From an uncultured Alphaproteobacteria bacterium (lineage in GTDB: Bacteria > Pseudomonadota > Alphaproteobacteria > Rs-D84): DNA of 64,000 nt. How positions within the stretch are numbered: the stretch's first letter is position 1; the number at the start of each line of letters is the position of its first letter. Positions 15,262-63,040 of this stretch are shown here, piece by piece. Below the pieces are notes generated by a model. It made no database searches. It was not told the DNA's origin and was given only the letters and a program-made list of their open reading frames with translations. The DNA lies in contig CALXML010000001.1 in the NCBI GenBank assembly GCA_944389465.1, positions 79,427 to 143,426 on the forward strand, written 5' to 3'. Position numbers and translations under genes: made by a program.

Positions 15262-15468
15262 CTTGTGTAAAAATTGCAAAATTTTTATAATACATTTGCG
15301 AGTCTGGTTGAAAAATATGCCGAATAAAAACGGACGTTTTTTTAACGACTTTTTTATGTCAAAAAACTAATATTTTTCCGTGTTTTTATGTTATGAAATA
15401 TGCCGAAATAAAACGTCCGTTTGTTTTTTTGTTATTCAAACCAGTGGAAAGGGAAGTTCACAACAGGG

Positions 15469-15853
15469 TATGTGGCGTTTTGTTGTTTTGATTTTTGTAT
15501 GCTGCGTATTTTGCGCCACTGGTGCGCGTGCTGATATTGCCAGTGCTGGTTATGTTAATGATATTGTCAGTGCGTTGGATGTGCAATCTGATTGGGCACA
15601 AACAGACAGCAATGCTCGCGATTTTATTCGTAATAAGCCGGAAATCCCATCGCCCGATGCGGTGGAATATATTGATAACAAGGTTTTGGAAATATCGGAT
15701 TCTGTGACTGATAATCAATATCCGTCTGCGCGGGCTGTTAATAATGCGCTGTCAACCAAGGCCGATGTTAACGATGTTCGTTTTAATACCGTGCCAACCA
15801 GTCAACCCGTTGGAATGCCACCCGCAGGTCAGGTATTTATATGGTTTAATTAA
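15469..15853 (+). CDS. Small secreted paralogue of the large fibre proteins (carries the YPSA(K/R)AV motif)
   Basis: ATG at 15469 gives the signal peptide MWRFVVLIFVCCVFCATGARA followed by DIASAGYVNDIV... This matches the xIASKGYVD N-terminal box of the 57-62 kb genes. It also contains NQYPSARAVNNAL. The longer ORF-track start at 15380 would run through the upstream GCCGAA box. Confidence 0.6.
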
Positions 15854-15855
15854 AT

Positions 15856-16833
15856 ATGCCCGCGATATATATTGGTGATATTCAAATTCCTGTTCAAATG
15901 GCGCAAAATACAACGCCGTCACTGAAAGTTATGGATGCGTTCGGTGTGGTTTATTATGCTGATGCGATGTTGGGGGCGTGTCCCAATGCCGTAAAGGTTT
16001 CAGACGGCGCAGATGTATACAGCATTGGTGCAAAAACATTGGTGTATCAGGCGGATGCAATTAATTCCTGTGAAATGGTTAATTTGCCCGCGGGATGTTA
16101 TTTCGCAGAAATTCGCGGTGGTCGTGGCGGGGACGGCGGGAATAATGCGGGCAGTGGTATGGATGCCATCGTTCAATCATACAGTTTTACAATTACGCAG
16201 CCCACGGATGTGTATGTTTTTCGTGGGGCGGACGGTAATGCCGGCGCGGTAAATATTGATGGCAACATTGCAACCGGTGGTGGGGGCGGGGCGTCTGGGA
16301 TGCCCAGTATGTTGGTGGTTGGTGAAAATGTAATTATTTCAGATGGGGGCGCGGGTGGTCGCGGCGGTCTGGCATCTGATAACAGTGGCGCAACGTATGA
16401 ATGTGGTTCTGGGGGTGGTGGAAATGGTGGCGAAAATGCAAATGGGTTAAATGCGGTTGCACACTATACATGGAATTATAATTTTTTAATGTGTGGTGCG
16501 GGTGGTGGTGGTGCACCAAATGGCGCATCTGGGGTCAGTGCTGATGCATTAAGCGGTGGTTATGGTGGTGATGCATCTGATGCGGGCAGTCCGGATTCTG
16601 GGGGCAGGGGCGGTGATGCGTGGCGTCTGGTTTCAACAACAACCGGCGGGGCGGGTGGCGCCAGTGTTTCAATGTCTTGCGCGGGACAAACCTTGACATC
16701 GTATGGTGGTGGGGGCGGTGGTGCGGTTCAGGCTAAATTTACGTTGCCGGTAAATATGGATGGTGGAAATGGCGGCAGTGGCACAACCGGCAACAGCGAA
16801 ACCAGTTTCGTGCGGATTTTCAGATTCGGATAG
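15856..16833 (+). CDS. Glycine-rich repeat protein (GGxGG tracts), no signal peptide; possibly tail-fibre-like
   Basis: 325 aa. Starts 2 nt after the previous stop, which suggests translational coupling. Long GG(A/R/D)GG runs. Confidence 0.5.
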   Translation: MPAIYIGDIQIPVQMAQNTTPSLKVMDAFGVVYYADAMLGACPNAVKVSDGADVYSIGAKTLVYQADAINSCEMVNLPAGCYFAEIRGGRGGDGGNNAGSGMDAIVQSYSFTITQPTDVYVFRGADGNAGAVNIDGNIATGGGGGASGMPSMLVVGENVIISDGGAGGRGGLASDNSGATYECGSGGGGNGGENANGLNAVAHYTWNYNFLMCGAGGGGAPNGASGVSADALSGGYGGDASDAGSPDSGGRGGDAWRLVSTTTGGAGGASVSMSCAGQTLTSYGGGGGGAVQAKFTLPVNMDGGNGGSGTTGNSETSFVRIFRFG

Positions 16834-16848
16834 TTACGATTTTTTGCC

Positions 16849-16877
16849 TTGCAGAATTTATAAAAAGTCCATATAAT
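16849..16877 (+). promoter_or_regulatory. Candidate sigma70-type promoter (TTGCAG-17-TATAAT) upstream of the 17036 cysteine-rich gene
   Basis: ttgcag at 16849-16854, a 17 nt spacer, and tataat at 16872-16877. Confidence 0.45.
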
Positions 16878-16975
16878 ACTGGGCGTGCAGGGCAGAAAAA
16901 CGTGCCTAATTAAAAGGGTGGATTTTTTTCAAAGCGTTTTTATGTCTTGAAATCCACGTTTTCTGCCACATTTGG

Positions 16976-16983
16976 CCCCCCCC
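16976..16983. repeat. Poly-C tract (C8) in the leader/promoter region of the 17036 gene, immediately 5' of the GCCGAAATAAA box
   Basis: ggcccccccc read directly from the sequence. Confidence 0.9.
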
Positions 16984-17035
16984 ATTTTTGCCGAAATAAA
17001 CCGACCACTTTTTTTTCTCTTTTACAATTCTGACA

Positions 17036-18913
17036 TTGTTTGTGTCGTCTGCATTTGCGGCCGGATATTCGTGCCCTGCATATAAAAAATATACATCTTG
17101 TAATGCCGGATATTATTTGAATGGAACAGGGGCGGGAAATTCTTGTTCGTCGTGTACGGGTGTGTCGTTTACCAATTATGGTACTGATACCACAACAGAT
17201 TACAGTGGATGCACCGCCACATCACAAACGGTTAGTGGCAGTATCAGTGGTGGTGGTTCGTATACGCAATACCAAACGCGTACCGGTTCGCGTACAGGTA
17301 CACGCAGTAAAAGCCAGACCTGTTATCGTACTGGTGGGGCGGGTGGAACCAGTGGTTCATCTGCTTGTACAGGTATGGGGAATTGCGGGGCGTGGTCATA
17401 TGGCAGTTGGTCGTATGGGGCGTGCAATTACACTGCGTGGGCAAACAGTGGTGCGCGAAAAATAACCTGTCCGGCGGGAACCTATTGGAATGGTTCTGGG
17501 TGTGCGTCCTGTGGCACGGGGTATTATTGTGCGGGCTTTAACAGCGTTGACGAATCGTCATTATTAAATGGTTATGGGCGTAAATCTTGTACAAATGCGC
17601 CGGCAAACGCCAATTACACCGGCAGTGCAACAACAAATTCATGTGCGTGGTCATGCAAGGCGGGCTATTACGGTTCATCCGTCGCGGGCAGTACATCTTG
17701 TGCGGATTGCGGCAGTGGTAATTATTGTACTGGTGGAACACATCGTGCAACATGTGCGTCAACTGTACTGGCCAGTGCGCCAATCCCCACTAACATTATA
17801 TCTGTGTCCAGTGGCAGTTGGTTGGATTTTAATCATGCAACCAGTACATCTGATTGTGTATGTGAATGGTATTTTAGTGATGATGTCAGAACGCAATATA
17901 TGAATCAACGCTTATGCAGTGAAGGGCCGGGGGGAAATAATTATACGCATTATAATTGGTGCAGAACAGGATATTATGCAACTGAACCACTGAATTTTAA
18001 CAATTGGTATAACAACTGTGCGGCGTGCACGAATGGACCGGCTAATTCCACGTACACCAGTTACAGCACCCCATCACAGATGTATGCAGTGGAAAGTAAT
18101 TGCCCGTGGCAATGTAATGCCGGTTTTTACAAAAATGGTAACAGTTGTGTTGCGTGTCCAAGTGCATATCCGTATTCAGATGCGGGTGCAACATCGGTAA
18201 CCCAGTGTTACAGTGGCACAAAAAAACGTGCATGGAACGGCAGTCAAATACCATGTGCAAAGCCATCGGGGTGTGCCACGGTGCAATGTAATGCATGTTC
18301 AAAATCAACGTGTGATTATGTTGCATATGCAAACAGTGCGGGCACTGGTGATGGCGAGGTTAAATCAGGCTGTACCACTAATAATGCGTCGTGTAATCAA
18401 ACGGTTGCGTCGGTTACTGCGGCGTCCGGATATTATGTTAATGGCGTATCCTGTCCGGCGTGCAGTGGGGTGGGGGACGGTTCGTATACTTTGTCTGAAA
18501 ATGGCAATACCGGTGGCAATGCCCAATGTTACAAGATTTGTTCGCGTGCATGTACGCAACAGGCGTGTCCTGCAAATGCCACGTGTACGCATGGCACAAC
18601 CAGTACGTCGGGGGTTCAATATTATGGGGGCGCATGCAATGCGGCCGCGTCAACATGCACCATGTCTTTTGAATGTAATAATGGGTATAACTTAACGTCT
18701 GGCAATATTTGTGCCCAGTTATGCACCGCCGGTGCAACACATTTGAAAACGGGTACTGGGGTCAGTATACCATTATATTCCGCACCGCAATCGGTGCCCG
18801 CAATAAATGTCGGGTATAATGGCGATGTGTGTTATGGCACATTGGCAACCGGCGCGGCCAGTGGGGCATTTAATGTAAAGTACGGCGGTTCAACATATCA
18901 CGCAGTTCAATAA
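17036..18913 (+). CDS. Large cysteine-rich secreted repeat protein (family member; GYYC/CxxC-rich)
   Basis: 625 aa with more than 60 Cys and recurring CxAGYYxxG/CTGG motifs. The ORF-track start is a TTG. The N-terminal LTLFVSSAFAA would be a short signal-like segment if an upstream CTG start is used. The start is uncertain. Confidence 0.6.
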   Translation: MFVSSAFAAGYSCPAYKKYTSCNAGYYLNGTGAGNSCSSCTGVSFTNYGTDTTTDYSGCTATSQTVSGSISGGGSYTQYQTRTGSRTGTRSKSQTCYRTGGAGGTSGSSACTGMGNCGAWSYGSWSYGACNYTAWANSGARKITCPAGTYWNGSGCASCGTGYYCAGFNSVDESSLLNGYGRKSCTNAPANANYTGSATTNSCAWSCKAGYYGSSVAGSTSCADCGSGNYCTGGTHRATCASTVLASAPIPTNIISVSSGSWLDFNHATSTSDCVCEWYFSDDVRTQYMNQRLCSEGPGGNNYTHYNWCRTGYYATEPLNFNNWYNNCAACTNGPANSTYTSYSTPSQMYAVESNCPWQCNAGFYKNGNSCVACPSAYPYSDAGATSVTQCYSGTKKRAWNGSQIPCAKPSGCATVQCNACSKSTCDYVAYANSAGTGDGEVKSGCTTNNASCNQTVASVTAASGYYVNGVSCPACSGVGDGSYTLSENGNTGGNAQCYKICSRACTQQACPANATCTHGTTSTSGVQYYGGACNAAASTCTMSFECNNGYNLTSGNICAQLCTAGATHLKTGTGVSIPLYSAPQSVPAINVGYNGDVCYGTLATGAASGAFNVKYGGSTYHAVQ

Positions 18914-19223
18914 ATTAAAAAACTTGTTTTTATTATCGTCTTAAAATATACTGATTTATGAATCCAAAGGGATTTGGGTTCGGGACCTGAAAAATCCTGT
19001 ATTTAGGCGATGCGGAAACGTATCGTAATCCGACTGAAAAAAACGTCGGCGCGTGTGTTGCGCCGTGTGTTTATATCACCCGATTTAAAAGGTCGGGGAT
19101 TCGCGATTATACAACAGTGGGAAACCATAAAAGTCGCGGGGTCATTCCTAAATATGATTTTTCAATCCCCGACCGCCAATTCCGTGGCGGTTTTTGTTTA
19201 ACAAAAGCAAAAGGGAATTGAAA

Positions 19224-19774
19224 ATGAAAAATCGTGTGTTTATTTGGGGCGTGGCTTTTGCGTGCGCCTGTGTTGGCAATGTTGTTGGGCGAACATGCAC
19301 CAGTTCTGTAAATATACAATGTCCGGTTACAGCGGGTGCAGCAAGTTGTTGCCGTATGTTGAATGAAACCTGTGCAGAGGCGGGCTGTGGCGGTACATCT
19401 GGTGGGGGGATGTGGAAGATTGCGACCCGTGTCCTGCGGCTGAATTGACATGGACGGTAAATCGCTTGTATGGCTTTCAGTACAGAATTTCTGGGTATAT
19501 GCAGGATGCAATAACATGCCGTTGTACACCACAATATATCACGCAATGCATAGCAGGCCGATACGGATTAAGCGTGATAACCACGAACAATATACCAACG
19601 GCTGATGAGGTGGATTGTAAATTTTGTCCGTCTGCTGGTGGGCGGATAAATCCGGCAACATCTGTGGCGGGGAAAAATAATCTTATAACGTCTTGTTATA
19701 TACCGGCCAATGCAACGGGCAGTGATGATACGGGCACGTTTACGGTCAGTAATGATTGTTATTATACAGAATAA
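19224..19774 (+). pseudogene. Cysteine-rich family member with the conserved CYY tail, interrupted by a frameshift in a G6 tract (19404-19409). Either phase-variable or a pseudogene.
   Basis: ATG 19224 with aaaggg RBS encodes the signal peptide MKNRVFIWGVAFACACVG... and the frame closes at 19448. ORF 19412..19774 in another frame ends ...CYIPANATGSDDTGTFTVSNDCYYTE. Adding one G to ggtgggggga gives a continuous ...SGGGDVEDCDPCP... protein. Confidence 0.55.
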
Positions 19775-19778
19775 AAAA

Positions 19779-19803
19779 ATCGCCCAATTGGGCGGTTTTT
19801 TAT
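19779..19803. terminator. Bidirectional intrinsic terminator (between the cysteine-rich gene and convergent rpsT)
   Basis: cgcccaattgggcg palindrome flanked by A-run and T-run. Confidence 0.8.
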
Positions 19804-19826: not shown

Positions 19827-20087
19827 TTACGCCATTTTTGCAACGCGTTTGGTCAGACGTGAAACCCGACGTGCGGCACGCTTTTTGGGCATAACCTTGC
19901 CCACGGATTTCATAATACGACTTTCTGCGTTACGAGCAGCGATTGTTGCCGCGGCCTTATCGCCAGATTCAACAGCAACCAATACCTTTTTCGTCGCTGT
20001 TTTAACAGCACTGCGACGTGAATTATTAACGGCGTTTTTCTTTGCCGTTACCAGAATTCTTTTTTTAGATGACTTGTGATTTGCCAC
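19827..20087 (-). CDS. rpsT: 30S ribosomal protein S20
   Basis: 86 aa, basic. MANHKSSKKRILVTAKKNAVNNSRRSAVKTA... is a typical S20 sequence. Confidence 0.9.
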   Translation of the reverse strand: MANHKSSKKRILVTAKKNAVNNSRRSAVKTATKKVLVAVESGDKAAATIAARNAESRIMKSVGKVMPKKRAARRVSRLTKRVAKMA

Positions 20088-30218: not shown

Positions 30219-30506
30219 TTAGTTGCTGTAATAGCAATTTGACGTATATGTATATGTGCCGGTTGAATCAGAACCAGTGGTGCCGGACCGAATATAGCAT
30301 GACGTAATTGATGTCGCGCCTGATGCAGATGTGCCGCCATCGGGGCACAGTGTGCATGCGTTGCCATTTTTATAATATCCTGCATTACATGAAAATGAAT
30401 TTGCATTATAGCATGTGCTGTTTGCAACGGGGCATTTCAGACAACTGCATTCTGATTCGCTGCCGAACGCTGTATTTCGGGTTTCGACACCCCGAATTGG
30501 GAACAC
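30219..30506 (-). pseudogene. Truncated cysteine-rich family member: a C-terminal cassette only (95 aa, no signal peptide)
   Basis: Ends ...CPDGGTSASGATSITSCYIRSGTTGSDSTGTYTYTSNCYYSN, the family tail. GTG start with no leader sequence. Only about 55 nt separate it from the next terminator. Confidence 0.45.
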
Positions 30507-30557
30507 CCCAATTCAATTAATTATTTAACCTAAATTTTTATGCTAAATCAAGATAAT

Positions 30558-38388: not shown

Positions 38389-38413
38389 AAATGCCCCGTG
38401 TGGGGCATTTTTA
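38389..38413. terminator. Bidirectional intrinsic terminator (dnaN / convergent cysteine-rich gene)
   Basis: atgccccgtgtggggcat hairpin flanked by A-run and T-run. Confidence 0.8.
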
Positions 38414-39082
38414 TTCTGTATAATAACAGTTTGACGTTATTGAATATGAACCGGTCGTGTCAGAATACGAACCAGTTGGTATATAACATTCGGTTATTTT
38501 GGATGCACCACGTGGGGTTGTGCCGGGGGTATATGTATGCGGCCCCTTGTTATAATCCGGACACCATGTCAGACCGCGTTCTGTACTGCCCGCTGTAAAC
38601 GTTCCGCCGGCGCAATAATAACCACTGCGGCATTGTGCGCATTCATTATTGTTGGTTATATAATATCCCGCATTGCACATTATGCTGCTGGGAACACAGG
38701 TATTAAGTTGTGTTTTATAAAATCCATTTTTACAATAAAAAGTATCGTTATAATATATATCGCATTCGGCATTTGCCGGACATGGTGTGCATTGTCCCGT
38801 TGATGTTGTATTGGTTGGTATGCCATATGTTCCAGTGTTGCAAACTAAACCGGCTGTTCTGTTACATTGGCACCAATTACCAGCTTGGGTTACATAAAGC
38901 ATATTATAACCGGTACATACCGAAGTTGTTGGGTTACACTTTATTTCTAGTTGTTGAAATGATTCTTCTTTGCCACTGCAAGTTTCGTATAATTCGTCTG
39001 TACAAAGTTGCAACGCCCCAAAAGCCGATATTTCTGAAAAAACAAACACACATAATGCCGTGCCAATTAATCGTATATTCAT
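38411..39082 (-). CDS. Cysteine-rich secreted protein with the conserved CYY tail (family member)
   Basis: Signal peptide MNIRLIGTALCVFVFSEISAFGA. Ends ...ECYIPTGSYSDTTGSYSITSNCYYTE. RBS aaaaaggga. Confidence 0.7.
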   Translation of the reverse strand: MNIRLIGTALCVFVFSEISAFGALQLCTDELYETCSGKEESFQQLEIKCNPTTSVCTGYNMLYVTQAGNWCQCNRTAGLVCNTGTYGIPTNTTSTGQCTPCPANAECDIYYNDTFYCKNGFYKTQLNTCVPSSIMCNAGYYITNNNECAQCRSGYYCAGGTFTAGSTERGLTWCPDYNKGPHTYTPGTTPRGASKITECYIPTGSYSDTTGSYSITSNCYYTE

Positions 39083-40850: not shown

Positions 40851-41135
40851 GCGGAATTTTTCGCAGATTTTTTCTCCCGTCATTTTGGCGGGCGTTTTTT
40901 AATCTTGCATAGTATTTGTGTGTGCGGTAACATACTTTTGCCGGCGGGTGTTCCGCGGGCGGGGTGTGGAAACCCTTCTTTTGCGTCGCATTTTGGCGAT
41001 GATAAGTTAATCCCTGATTTTTGGTCAGGGGGGTCGTGAATATATTGAATAAGCGACACAATTCAAAAGATTGTTTCCAACCTCCTGACCACCAAAATTT
41101 TGGTGGTTTTTGTTTAACAAAAACAAAACAGGGGT

Positions 41136-41735
41136 TTGAAAATGAAAAAAATATTTGTGCCGGCGTTATTGCTGGGGGTGATTGTGCCCAATGCGGTGTA
41201 TGGTGCTGTAAAACCACCAGTTTCAGGTGAAGAAAATGCCTATGTTGGCAAAGAGATGGGGTGGGCCACGTGTCAGTTATGTATGGATAGTGCACTGTCG
41301 TTGCGCGATTGGATATTATCCATGGGCTTTGCGGACGAGTCGTGTTTAGGATTGTCATCTAACCCAGATTACATAGCATACAAAGGCACATTGAGTGAAC
41401 ATGTTACTTATGATGCACAACAATTAGGAATGCCACAAGCAGGCGAGATTGTGAACAGTTATATGGATTCCGTGGCTGCAGAGGTGTGTAATGGCGTTCC
41501 GCCGGCAGGTTCGTGTATGTATTACGGTATGTGTATGTGCGCGGCGAATTATTATCCATATGCTGGTGATGATTGGTACGGTGCGTTAGAGTGTGTGGCG
41601 TGTCCCAGTGGCGGAAAATCCAATGAAAATTCACAGTTTGGTATTACAGATTGCTATATTCCGGCCGGAACAACGGGTTCTGATGAAACAGGAAAATTTA
41701 CGTATTCGTCGGACTGTTATTATACAACGAATTAA
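41136..41735 (+). CDS. Cysteine-rich secreted protein with the conserved CYY tail (family member)
   Basis: Signal peptide MKKIFVPALLLGVIVPNAVYGA. Ends ...DCYIPAGTTGSDETGKFTYSSDCYYTTN. The leader is conserved with that of 19224. Confidence 0.7.
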   Translation: MKMKKIFVPALLLGVIVPNAVYGAVKPPVSGEENAYVGKEMGWATCQLCMDSALSLRDWILSMGFADESCLGLSSNPDYIAYKGTLSEHVTYDAQQLGMPQAGEIVNSYMDSVAAEVCNGVPPAGSCMYYGMCMCAANYYPYAGDDWYGALECVACPSGGKSNENSQFGITDCYIPAGTTGSDETGKFTYSSDCYYTTN

Positions 41736-42704: not shown

Positions 42705-43119
42705 ATTATGTGTCCTTTTATTTTTTTTATCACGTCAATTATATCACAATAGGGTGGGGTGTGTCTGATAAATTTATAGGAATATTTGTTGTATGCAATA
42801 TGCTTGACAATACATGTATTTTGTCATATATTTATAAAAGAACAAATAACCGATACAGAATGTATCAGGCGGTATAATAAAATGATTTTGAATAAAAATC
42901 TTTGTTATATTGATTTTGGGGATATTCCCGATTGGCCACCATGTGACGGATGTCACGTGGGGGGGATAATGGGGAATGAATTTTCACCAGAATCAAATGC
43001 CGCAGATGATGATTTTGTGTCATATAAGGGATAAAAGTCCGGAAATTTTTCCGGACTTTTTGTGTTTTATTGGTGAAGAAACGAATAAACACATAACGCC
43101 AAACCAAAGGGGGCAAAAA

Positions 43120-49781: not shown

Positions 49782-50288
49782 TTATTCTGAATAATAGCAG
49801 TTATTCGTATATGTGCATGTACCGGATGTGTCAGAACAACTGCTGCCACTGGGCAGATAGCATGATGTTATGCTGGTGCTGCCGGTGGGGGATGTGCCGC
49901 CCCCCGGACATTCTGTGCATTGACCTGCAAGAAAGGATGTTGGGGTGCCATAATATCCGGCCGCGCATTTATATGAATATCTGCGTGAACAGGTACATGT
50001 GATTGTGCCGGTCATACCAGTTGGACAATTTGATAGTATGGATGCGGTCCCTGTGGTTATAACACCATTTCTGGTGGTGGTGGTATTTTTGCAGTTACGG
50101 CAAGAGTCGCCCTCGCACGATGAATCAACTGTCCAGTTTGCACCGACAGGCATTTGTGGACACATATAGCATATAATATCCGCATTTGCCGTTGGAATAA
50201 ATATTGTCAGAAAACCACCGATTTTTTTCGGCAAAAAAGGGGAGTAAAAAAATGCAAAAATCTGGGATTTTTTCAAAATTAAAAACAC
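49782..50288 (-). CDS. Cysteine-rich family member with the conserved CYY tail; N-terminus unclear (no obvious signal peptide)
   Basis: Ends ...CPGGGTSPTGSTSITSCYLPSGSSCSDTSGTCTYTNNCYYSE. The ORF-track GTG start lies inside the conserved leader cassette. The first internal ATGs give MCPQMPVG... without a signal peptide. It may be a 5'-degenerate copy. Confidence 0.45.
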   Translation of the reverse strand: MFLILKKSQIFAFFYSPFLPKKIGGFLTIFIPTANADIICYMCPQMPVGANWTVDSSCEGDSCRNCKNTTTTRNGVITTGTASILSNCPTGMTGTITCTCSRRYSYKCAAGYYGTPTSFLAGQCTECPGGGTSPTGSTSITSCYLPSGSSCSDTSGTCTYTNNCYYSE

Positions 50289-62203: not shown

Positions 62204-62778
62204 GATTGCTTCGCTGTGCTCGCAATGACAAGAGGAGGGGATAATTATTTACTTAAACCAGAACATATCTTGTTCGGACAAATCAAGCCAATTTGGATTT
62301 ATTGATTCTATTAGTTTGATTTTTTGTGTGCGTGAACCAGATTTTAATTTCTTTTCACGCTCCAAGGCGTCATTTACGTATTTGAAATTTTCGTAATATG
62401 CTAACTTGTTGCAATTATACTTTGCGGTAAATGAATTTTTATATGTTTTGTTTTTGTGTTCGTATACACGGCGACGTATATCGTTCGTAACACCTGTATA
62501 TAATGTGCCGTTTTTACGGTTGAACATTATATAGACGTAAAATTCATAATTTTTCATATTGAAATTATACATTATAAATGTGATAAAAGTGAATGTTTTT
62601 GTCATCGCAATTTACTGGATTGCTTCGCTGCGCTCGCAATGACAAGAGGGGGGGCTGTATACTGGTGTCATCGCGAGGGAGTGCAACGACCGTGGCGATC
62701 CATGGACAATATGTCGCGCATATGCGCGGGTATTATTTACTGGATTGCTTCGCTGCGCTCGCAATGACAAGAGGGGGC
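62204..62778. repeat. Three copies of a 45 bp direct repeat (tttactggattgcttcgctgYgctcgcaatgacaagaggRgggg) flanking a small GIY-YIG gene
   Basis: Copies at 62204-62245, 62611-62655 and 62736-62778. The cgcgcatatgcgcg palindrome lies between copies 2 and 3. Confidence 0.8.
62249..62557 (-). CDS. Small GIY-YIG nuclease superfamily protein
   Basis: MKNYEFYVYIMFNRKNGTLYTGVTNDIRRRVYEHK carries the GIY...YIG...R..EH motif. About 102 aa. The longer ORF-track start is an N-terminal extension. Confidence 0.7.
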   Translation of the reverse strand: MKNYEFYVYIMFNRKNGTLYTGVTNDIRRRVYEHKNKTYKNSFTAKYNCNKLAYYENFKYVNDALEREKKLKSGSRTQKIKLIESINPNWLDLSEQDMFWFK

Positions 62779-62825: not shown

Positions 62826-63040
62826 TGGTTTGGCGGTGCCGAACTACATAGAACATCAGTGTTAGTAGACGGGTTTAGTCACCTGAATATAACGCAATAA
62901 CTAACCTTTGTGTTCCCGACATACTAGTTGTCGGGAAGTCGTTCGCTATACAACAGCCCATTGGGTAAAGGCGACGGATTCATCGTTATATTTGAATGAC
63001 TAACTTCCCGACACCTGAACACTGGTCAGGTGTTTTTTTT
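62826..63040 (+). ncRNA. Candidate structured small RNA or cis-regulatory leader of about 215 nt ending in an intrinsic terminator, upstream of the PAP2 gene
   Basis: No ORF. Perfect hairpin ttcccgaca/tgtcgggaa (62922-62946). The cccgaca segment recurs at 63005-63013, next to the terminator cacctgaacactggtcaggtg followed by tttttttt (63011-63040). Confidence 0.4.

Follow-up and report, generated by a model that had tools for sequence, protein, structure and literature searches.

A gene for a cysteine-rich protein with a signal peptide is split by a one-nucleotide frameshift at a run of six G residues in the analysed window, a stretch of 64,000 nucleotides from an uncultured alphaproteobacterium of the Rs-D84 lineage. 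Comparison with other contigs of the same species shows that the frameshift is a real and heritable -1 allele, which probably arose by one slippage deletion in an incidental G7 run and persists as a stable, strain-specific null allele. The tract seems to be an incidental hot spot of mutation, not a switch that evolved as such.

The G6 run occupies positions 19404-19409 of the plus strand, in the context tct ggt GGGGGG atg tgg, as read directly from the sequence, and covers codons 61-62. It divides a 183-codon gene into a 74-codon 5' ORF (19224-19448, plus strand; ATG at 19224 and TGA at 19446-19448) and, in the -1 frame, a 3' part (19409-19774, plus strand). The 5' ORF begins with 62 native residues, which make up the signal peptide and a brief Cys-rich N-terminal stretch with TSGGG at its end; 12 out-of-frame residues (MWKIATRVLRLN) and the TGA codon follow. 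According to the ORF listing and its translation, the 3' part encodes residues D63 to E183 and ends with TAA at 19772-19774. The frame with the SNDCYYTE tail is open from 19367 to this TAA, and gene callers report the 3' part as a 120-aa ORF that starts with GTG at 19412 and lacks the signal peptide. Both the sequence and the ORFs therefore confirm the claim of the first-pass annotation that the gene starting at 19224 closes at 19448 and that its tail continues in another frame. The ribosome-binding site claimed for this gene corresponds to a Shine-Dalgarno-like AGGGA at 19212-19216 (plus strand), 7 nt before the ATG. Insertion of one G, which had been proposed to restore a single ORF, does so: the computed repair gives a 183-aa protein (..TSGGGDVEDCDPCP..DCYYTE) with 99% identity over the full length to P0001, an intact 183-aa protein from public metagenomes.

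The frameshifted gene is flanked on one side by a pilus secretin cluster with further Cys-rich genes, and on the other side by the convergent rpsT gene (19827-20087, minus strand). A hairpin with A and T runs on its flanks (CGCCCAATTGGGCG, 19781-19794) lies between the gene and rpsT and is probably a bidirectional terminator. The genes plsY, dprA, dnaA, and gyrB are found in the vicinity. The GyrB protein encoded in the window has 97% amino acid identity to that of Candidatus Enterousia intestinigallinarum, and the best 80 GyrB loci all belong to Enterousia, Rs-D84, or 'uncultured Alphaproteobacteria' gut MAGs. This assigns the window to a species of Ca. Enterousia, gut bacteria of the order Rs-D84 with reduced genomes. 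The genomes of Enterousia are about 0.75-1.0 Mb in size and lack the TCA cycle and respiration (PMC12306168).

The alleles at the tract were surveyed in 39 same-species contigs with approximately 96.5-100% nucleotide identity to the window, which were collected via exact protein look-ups, a route biased to intact or window-like products, and short ORFs resulting from other tract lengths may escape gene calling. The intact 183-codon gene is present in 32 of these contigs, and every in-frame allele encodes Gly-Gly-Gly-Asp at the site. Four codon arrangements were observed among the in-frame alleles: (i) GGT GGG GGG GAT, that is G7, in 12 contigs (L009, L010, L012, L014, and L101-L108), (ii) GGT GGG GGT GAT, that is G5-T-G, in 7 contigs, (iii) GGT GGT GGG GAT (GGTGGTGGGG) in 3 contigs, and (iv) GGT GGT GGT GAT (GGTGGTGGT) in 10 contigs. 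The same Gly tripeptide is thus encoded by T-interrupted codons in 20 of the 39 contigs. The frameshifted arrangement, GGT GGG GGG AT (G6), is found in 7 contigs and in the window.

Intact genes with G7 occur in sister strains with about 99% nucleotide identity. The closest intact allele, that of L010, is of the G7 type and differs from the window by one synonymous and one non-synonymous substitution in 549 nt. In DNA alignments the sole coding indel between the window and the intact alleles sits exactly at the G tract; thus, the break point is set by the intact orthologs and is not a coincidence. Since the nearest intact allele has G7, loss of one G by slippage is the most economical origin of the frameshift. 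The earlier statement that the tract is one unit off the ON length agrees with the G7 intact alleles found in the 12 contigs of close relatives. Loss of the T from a G5-T-G allele, considered from the alignment with L001 and L002, was dropped as an origin because the G7 alleles are closer to the window.

Outside the species, an ortholog was identified in Ca. E. intestinigallinarum (L021), the only one of the best 80 GyrB loci where it is detectable. This ortholog has GGC GGG GGT at the site, with G5 only, and the 15 listed members of its 64-member cluster are all full length. A scan of the GTDB species representatives yielded no orthologs. Pattern scans that spanned the tract and allowed a variable gap gave no match in the JGI metagenome contigs, and the source species is apparently missing from that collection.

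The pN/pS values among the intact alleles are mostly 0-0.3, with 0.40 for the highest pair; this indicates purifying selection, so that the gene normally has a function. For the intact protein, an AF2 model based on 78 family members reached a mean pLDDT of 77. The pLDDT is 53-68 in residues 1-65 and falls below 50 in the Gly linker (residues 59-63); from about residue 70 to residue 183 the means of 10-residue blocks are 77-94. The frameshift falls in this low-confidence Gly linker just before the confident domain, and the 3' part encodes the whole confidently folded domain together with the C-terminal CYYTE module of the family. According to the model, what remains in the 74-aa product is the signal peptide with a short Cys-rich stub, and the entire folded domain (approximately residues 66-183) is lost. 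We infer that the G6 allele has lost its function and that the intact protein is exported; the composition and the signal peptide are suggestive of an extracytoplasmic, disulfide-rich binding or surface role.

The family is defined by a C-terminal module of about 55 residues, C..CP.GG.S..G...IT.CYIP.G..GSD.TG.F.Y...CYYTE, and comprises 891 clusters at 50% identity (E <= 1e-3). Nearly all of these clusters represent proteins of 130-260 aa with the module at the very C-terminus. Searches of Pfam and NCBIfam with the protein and with its paralogs from the window revealed no significant family, and no PDB fold match was obtained for the AF2 model. Matches to PF07699 (Ephrin_rec_like) were found in 13 of the 78 relatives (E <= 0.01, the best being 9.8e-7), with none in P0001 or in the window paralogs, and some relatives have weak matches to TNFR-like and Giardia VSP families (one to VSP). 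The Cys spacing and the motif C..CP.GG.S..G....C are similar to those of PF07699 (GCC2_GCC3) repeats and of Giardia VSP-type proteins. In the window, further family members are encoded at 38411-39082 (minus strand), 41142-41735 (plus strand; a paralog), and 49782-50288 (minus strand), and a related Cys-rich protein of 625 aa is encoded at 17036-18913. A 97-codon stop-to-stop frame at 30222-30512 (minus strand) contains a perfect C-terminal module (..TSNCYYSN). Since a start codon, a ribosome-binding site, and a signal peptide are all missing, this frame probably is a gene remnant.

The reality of the frameshift was assessed using other assemblies. Six further metagenome contigs (L003-L008), all of them with G6 and 99.8-100% identical to the window, have a gene call for precisely this truncated product of 74 aa. 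The samples behind these contigs differ, and the assemblies come from two projects (BRZ_* and ONAT22-1) and from Logan; with L019, the number of independent short-read contigs with G6 is seven. Other samples of the same projects have G7 (BRZ_CI, BRZ_DP, SAMEA6814631, and SAMEA6814636). In the 15.5-kb alignment of the window with L010 the tract is the only coding indel, and the assembly is therefore not riddled with homopolymer errors. An artefact, with G7 as the true sequence and one G dropped during sequencing or assembly, would be suggested by the high frequency of homopolymer indels as an error class and by the many relatives with an intact gene. However, the recurrence of the same G6 allele in seven other contigs across samples, assemblers, and projects, the G7 alleles from those very projects, the co-segregation of G6 with linked SNPs, and the 15.5 kb free of further coding indels reduce its probability to almost nothing, and from these sequence comparisons an assembly or sequencing artefact is in practice excluded. 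Another explanation accepts the G6 run and assumes that -1 ribosomal frameshifting or transcriptional slippage on it still yields the full-length protein; indeed, slipping by -1 on GGG GGG would give back the native ..SGGGDVEDC.. segment without any change. Such a bypass is nevertheless very improbable. The zero-frame site is T GGG GGG and not a canonical X XXY YYZ heptamer, and G6 is below the tract lengths known for efficient transcriptional slippage. All other alleles and orthologs are single in-frame ORFs, so that the two-frame layout is not conserved in orthologs and the G6 arrangement is a recent mutation rather than a conserved recoding signal.

Once the frameshift is accepted as real, the remaining choice is between a stable knockout and an on/off switch. 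The A20V substitution is present in every G6 contig that covers the N-terminus, and the derived 19609G is present in every G6 contig that covers this position, including the otherwise diverged L019, and in no intact allele. These private SNPs shared by the G6 contigs argue for a single G6 origin. L019 was considered as a second, independent G6 event, and this was rejected because it carries 19609G, a private SNP of the window lineage. The G6 allele thus seems to have arisen once and to have lasted long enough for spread between samples and for divergence or recombination. The products of G4, G5, G8, G9, and G10 were sought, for the window background (V20) as well as for the ancestral one (A20), by exact look-ups in a collection of 15 billion proteins, and none was present on either background; in the same look-ups neither G6 on the A20 background nor the G7 revertant on the V20 background was found. 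Only G7 and G6 were observed as tract lengths in the consensus assemblies, which hide minority tract lengths within a sample, and the coverage of the G6 contigs is low (for example, 1.57 for L003). The combination of intact orthologs under purifying selection with an identical G6 haplotype in six other contigs from two projects is that of a null allele.

A genuine phase-variable gene, in which slipped-strand mispairing between G7 and G6 toggles a secreted or surface Cys-rich protein at high frequency, was weighed against the stable null allele. The repeat at 19404-19409 lies within the reading frame and a change by one unit shifts that frame; both lengths occur among close strains with about 99% nucleotide identity, G7 (ON) in 12 contigs and G6 (OFF) in the window and 7 contigs. 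The signal peptide of the product and the great diversity of its family (891 clusters) would fit this explanation, as would the resemblance of some relatives to ephrin-receptor-like or Giardia VSP-type Cys repeats and the strain-to-strain length variation of a nearby poly-C tract that precedes another family gene. In addition, Enterousia genomes are smaller than 1 Mb (PMC12306168), and loss of mismatch repair is conceivable. In PhasomeIt, the screening cut-off for Campylobacter poly-G/C tracts is at least 7, and variability between isolates is documented for tracts of at least 8 (PMC6321876); the G7 allele just reaches this cut-off, exactly at its value, and the G6 allele is below it. Tracts at the cut-off may, however, mutate at rates below 1e-5 and may be inefficient for switching (PMC6321876). 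About half of the same-species contigs lack the tract or have it interrupted (the 20 of 39 with interrupting T), the sister species has G5 only, and the tract hence is not conserved across strains or species. Only two lengths occur, the single-origin G6 is strictly linked to the private SNPs, and neither a revertant nor another length was retrieved by the exact look-ups, so that several lengths on the same background, the sign of repeated and reversible switching, were not seen in the consensus assemblies. G/C runs of at least 6 are not enriched in the window (11 versus 19.2 +/- 4.6 expected under a first-order Markov model). GGG accounts for 16-20% of Gly codons, which makes a G run in the Gly3 linker of a Gly-rich protein unremarkable. 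Taken together, these data make phase variation unlikely. From the proposal of a contingency locus, the one-nucleotide frameshift at a G tract and the G7 counterpart are retained, and the switching is not: the tract is not maintained, and there are two lengths of which the shorter has a single origin. The phase-variable claim may be further weakened by G6 and G7 being at or below the usual poly-G cut-off (PMC6321876) and by the number of G/C runs. A broader version, in which the G7/G6 tract and the neighbouring C8/C7/C6 tract form a small 'phasome' that stochastically varies a large repertoire of secreted ephrin-receptor-like Cys-rich proteins, possibly without mismatch repair, is likewise unlikely; if true, it would be the first SSR-driven phase variation in the Ca. 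Enterousia / Rs-D84 lineage.

For the preferred reading, a stable null allele, the following sequence of events can be proposed. Synonymous GGT to GGG changes in one clade would have converted the linker codons to a G7 run (GGT GGG GGG G-AT). In the window lineage one G would then have been lost, most likely by replication slippage. Translation of the resulting mRNA would stop after 62 native and 12 foreign residues, detaching the folded domain from the signal peptide, and the allele would in effect be null, with loss of function as the presumed outcome. This null allele appears to have arisen once and to have been stably transmitted, as the presence of G6 in several samples and two assembly projects indicates. 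Regaining a G would be chemically possible as a reversion.

The poly-G/C contingency genes of Campylobacter jejuni, Neisseria, and Haemophilus share several features with this locus: a G run within the first (5') third of the coding sequence of an exported protein, a frame toggled by a change of one unit, and naturally occurring in-frame (G7) and out-of-frame (G6) alleles. The known loci of these bacteria usually have conserved tracts of G8-G13 with many lengths and heterogeneity within a culture, whereas the locus described here has G7 and G6 only, interrupted codons in half of the strains, and an OFF allele that behaves like a single clonal mutation. Strain-specific frameshift pseudogenes at short homopolymers are common in host-associated bacteria with reduced genomes. 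The G6 allele resembles them in having a single one-nucleotide deletion, intact orthologs under purifying selection, and a stable and recent lesion with no further decay. It differs from ordinary pseudogenes in that a +1 G slip could reverse the lesion, and in that the affected gene belongs to a hyper-diverse secreted family where variation in presence and absence may itself be adaptive. As an event, the frameshift is of a known kind (a homopolymer frameshift allele); it affects an uncharacterised family and by itself represents no new mechanism.

The window lineage has thus lost one member of a large and fast-diversifying family of secreted Cys-rich proteins that sister strains retain under purifying selection. 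Such variation in presence and absence is a plausible axis of strain-level adaptation in an uncultured gut symbiont or parasite, and the G6 and G7 alleles form a clean natural ON/OFF pair for testing the role of the protein. In the annotation, the two ORFs would best be joined into one gene and marked as frameshifted.

Several observations concern the region upstream of the frameshifted gene. The block of 3.5 kb at 15380-18913 includes ORFs of 157, 325, and 625 aa, which are Gly- and Cys-rich and have no Pfam matches, and is missing in one lineage of the same species. In the contigs of this lineage (L109-L116) the gene of the frameshift family directly follows the secretin gene; thus, the region from the secretin gene to rpsT is a variable island. 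The 625-aa gene itself varies between strains. L009 and L014 have a 2-bp GT insertion in a G run corresponding to 18626-18630 of the window (atgggGTggcg versus atggg--ggcg), which frameshifts the C-terminus, and L101-L104 have an insertion or duplication near codons 36-40. Further frameshifts were suspected in L010 and L118 from fragmented gene calls; the alignment contains neither an indel nor a stop codon, and these were discarded as gene-caller artefacts. Public gene calls in L010, L118, L009, and L101-L102 cut the intact 625-aa gene into 4-5 short wrong-frame ORFs, because long alternative-frame ORFs in this G+C-rich gene mislead the callers.

The putative start of the 625-aa gene and the starts of several other family genes are preceded by a conserved motif, tttTTGCCGAAA(A/T)AAA, which reads TTG-CCG-AAA (M-P-K) in frame with the 625-aa ORF. 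At 16988-17035 of the window, after the motif, there is first an in-frame TAA (16997-16999) and next the apparent remainder of a signal peptide (..FFFSFTILTLFVSSAFA/AG); this TAA upstream of the 625-aa ORF is kept in all same-species loci. The same motif forms a 9-codon upstream ORF in 38411-39082 and may be the real start of 49782-50288 (MPKKIGGFLTIFIPTANA).

Among contigs of the same species, the intergenic poly-C tract at 16976-16983, located about 55 bp upstream of the 625-aa ORF and 2.4 kb upstream of the frameshifted gene, exists as C8 (the window and L101-L104), C7 (L010 and L105), or T+C6 (L011 and L013), and L009 has T7 in place of the adjacent T8 (17009-17016). Homopolymer length variation is thereby seen a second time beside a gene of the family. 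The variation of the poly-C length hints at a generally elevated homopolymer instability. The longest G runs of the window are G7 at 42959-42965 and at 62648-62654. The former lies 10 nt upstream of an ATG at 42976, at the position of a ribosome-binding site, and the latter is part of a direct repeat (..cgcaatgacaagaGGGGG..; unit of about 40 nt) whose other copy, at 62773, has G5. The segment 54660-62093, with four consecutive ORFs of 852, 573, 480, and 525 aa, has raised G+C content (0.46-0.51) and a strong positive AT skew.

The frameshifted gene has a structured 5' leader at 19091-19182 (plus strand), which probably is the more unusual feature of this locus, separate from the frameshift finding. 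The leader matches the sRNA-Xcc1 model (RF02221) with 49.6 bits in cmscan (E = 5e-8 for the local region and 7.9e-6 for the whole window). The match covers the model from end to end (positions 1-87), including the outer stem and the two inner hairpins, and its score is below the gathering score of 53, as is that of a second match at 62930-63020 (38.6 bits). The 'conserved leader' noted in the first-pass annotation is real by two measures, this match and the 95.7% identity to the leader of the ortholog in L021 (Ca. E. intestinigallinarum), the encoded proteins being only 43% identical. sRNA-Xcc1 is an sRNA of Xanthomonas integron cassettes, whereas the element described here is the 5' leader of a protein-coding gene and lies outside any integron cassette. 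A terminator-like hairpin (GACCGCCAATTCCGTGGCGGTT followed by TTTTTG; 19171-19192, plus strand) was detected by the terminator scan between the leader and the ribosome-binding site. The same arrangement of leader, terminator-like hairpin, and ribosome-binding site is found upstream of the paralog at 41142-41735 (leader at approximately 41010-41141) and of the PAP2 phosphatase gene at 63037 (leader at 62930-63020). The layout of these sRNA-Xcc1-like leaders suggests an attenuator or a riboswitch-like element acting in cis more than a free sRNA. The genes behind the three leaders all encode exported proteins: two Cys-rich family members and the PAP2 phosphatase.
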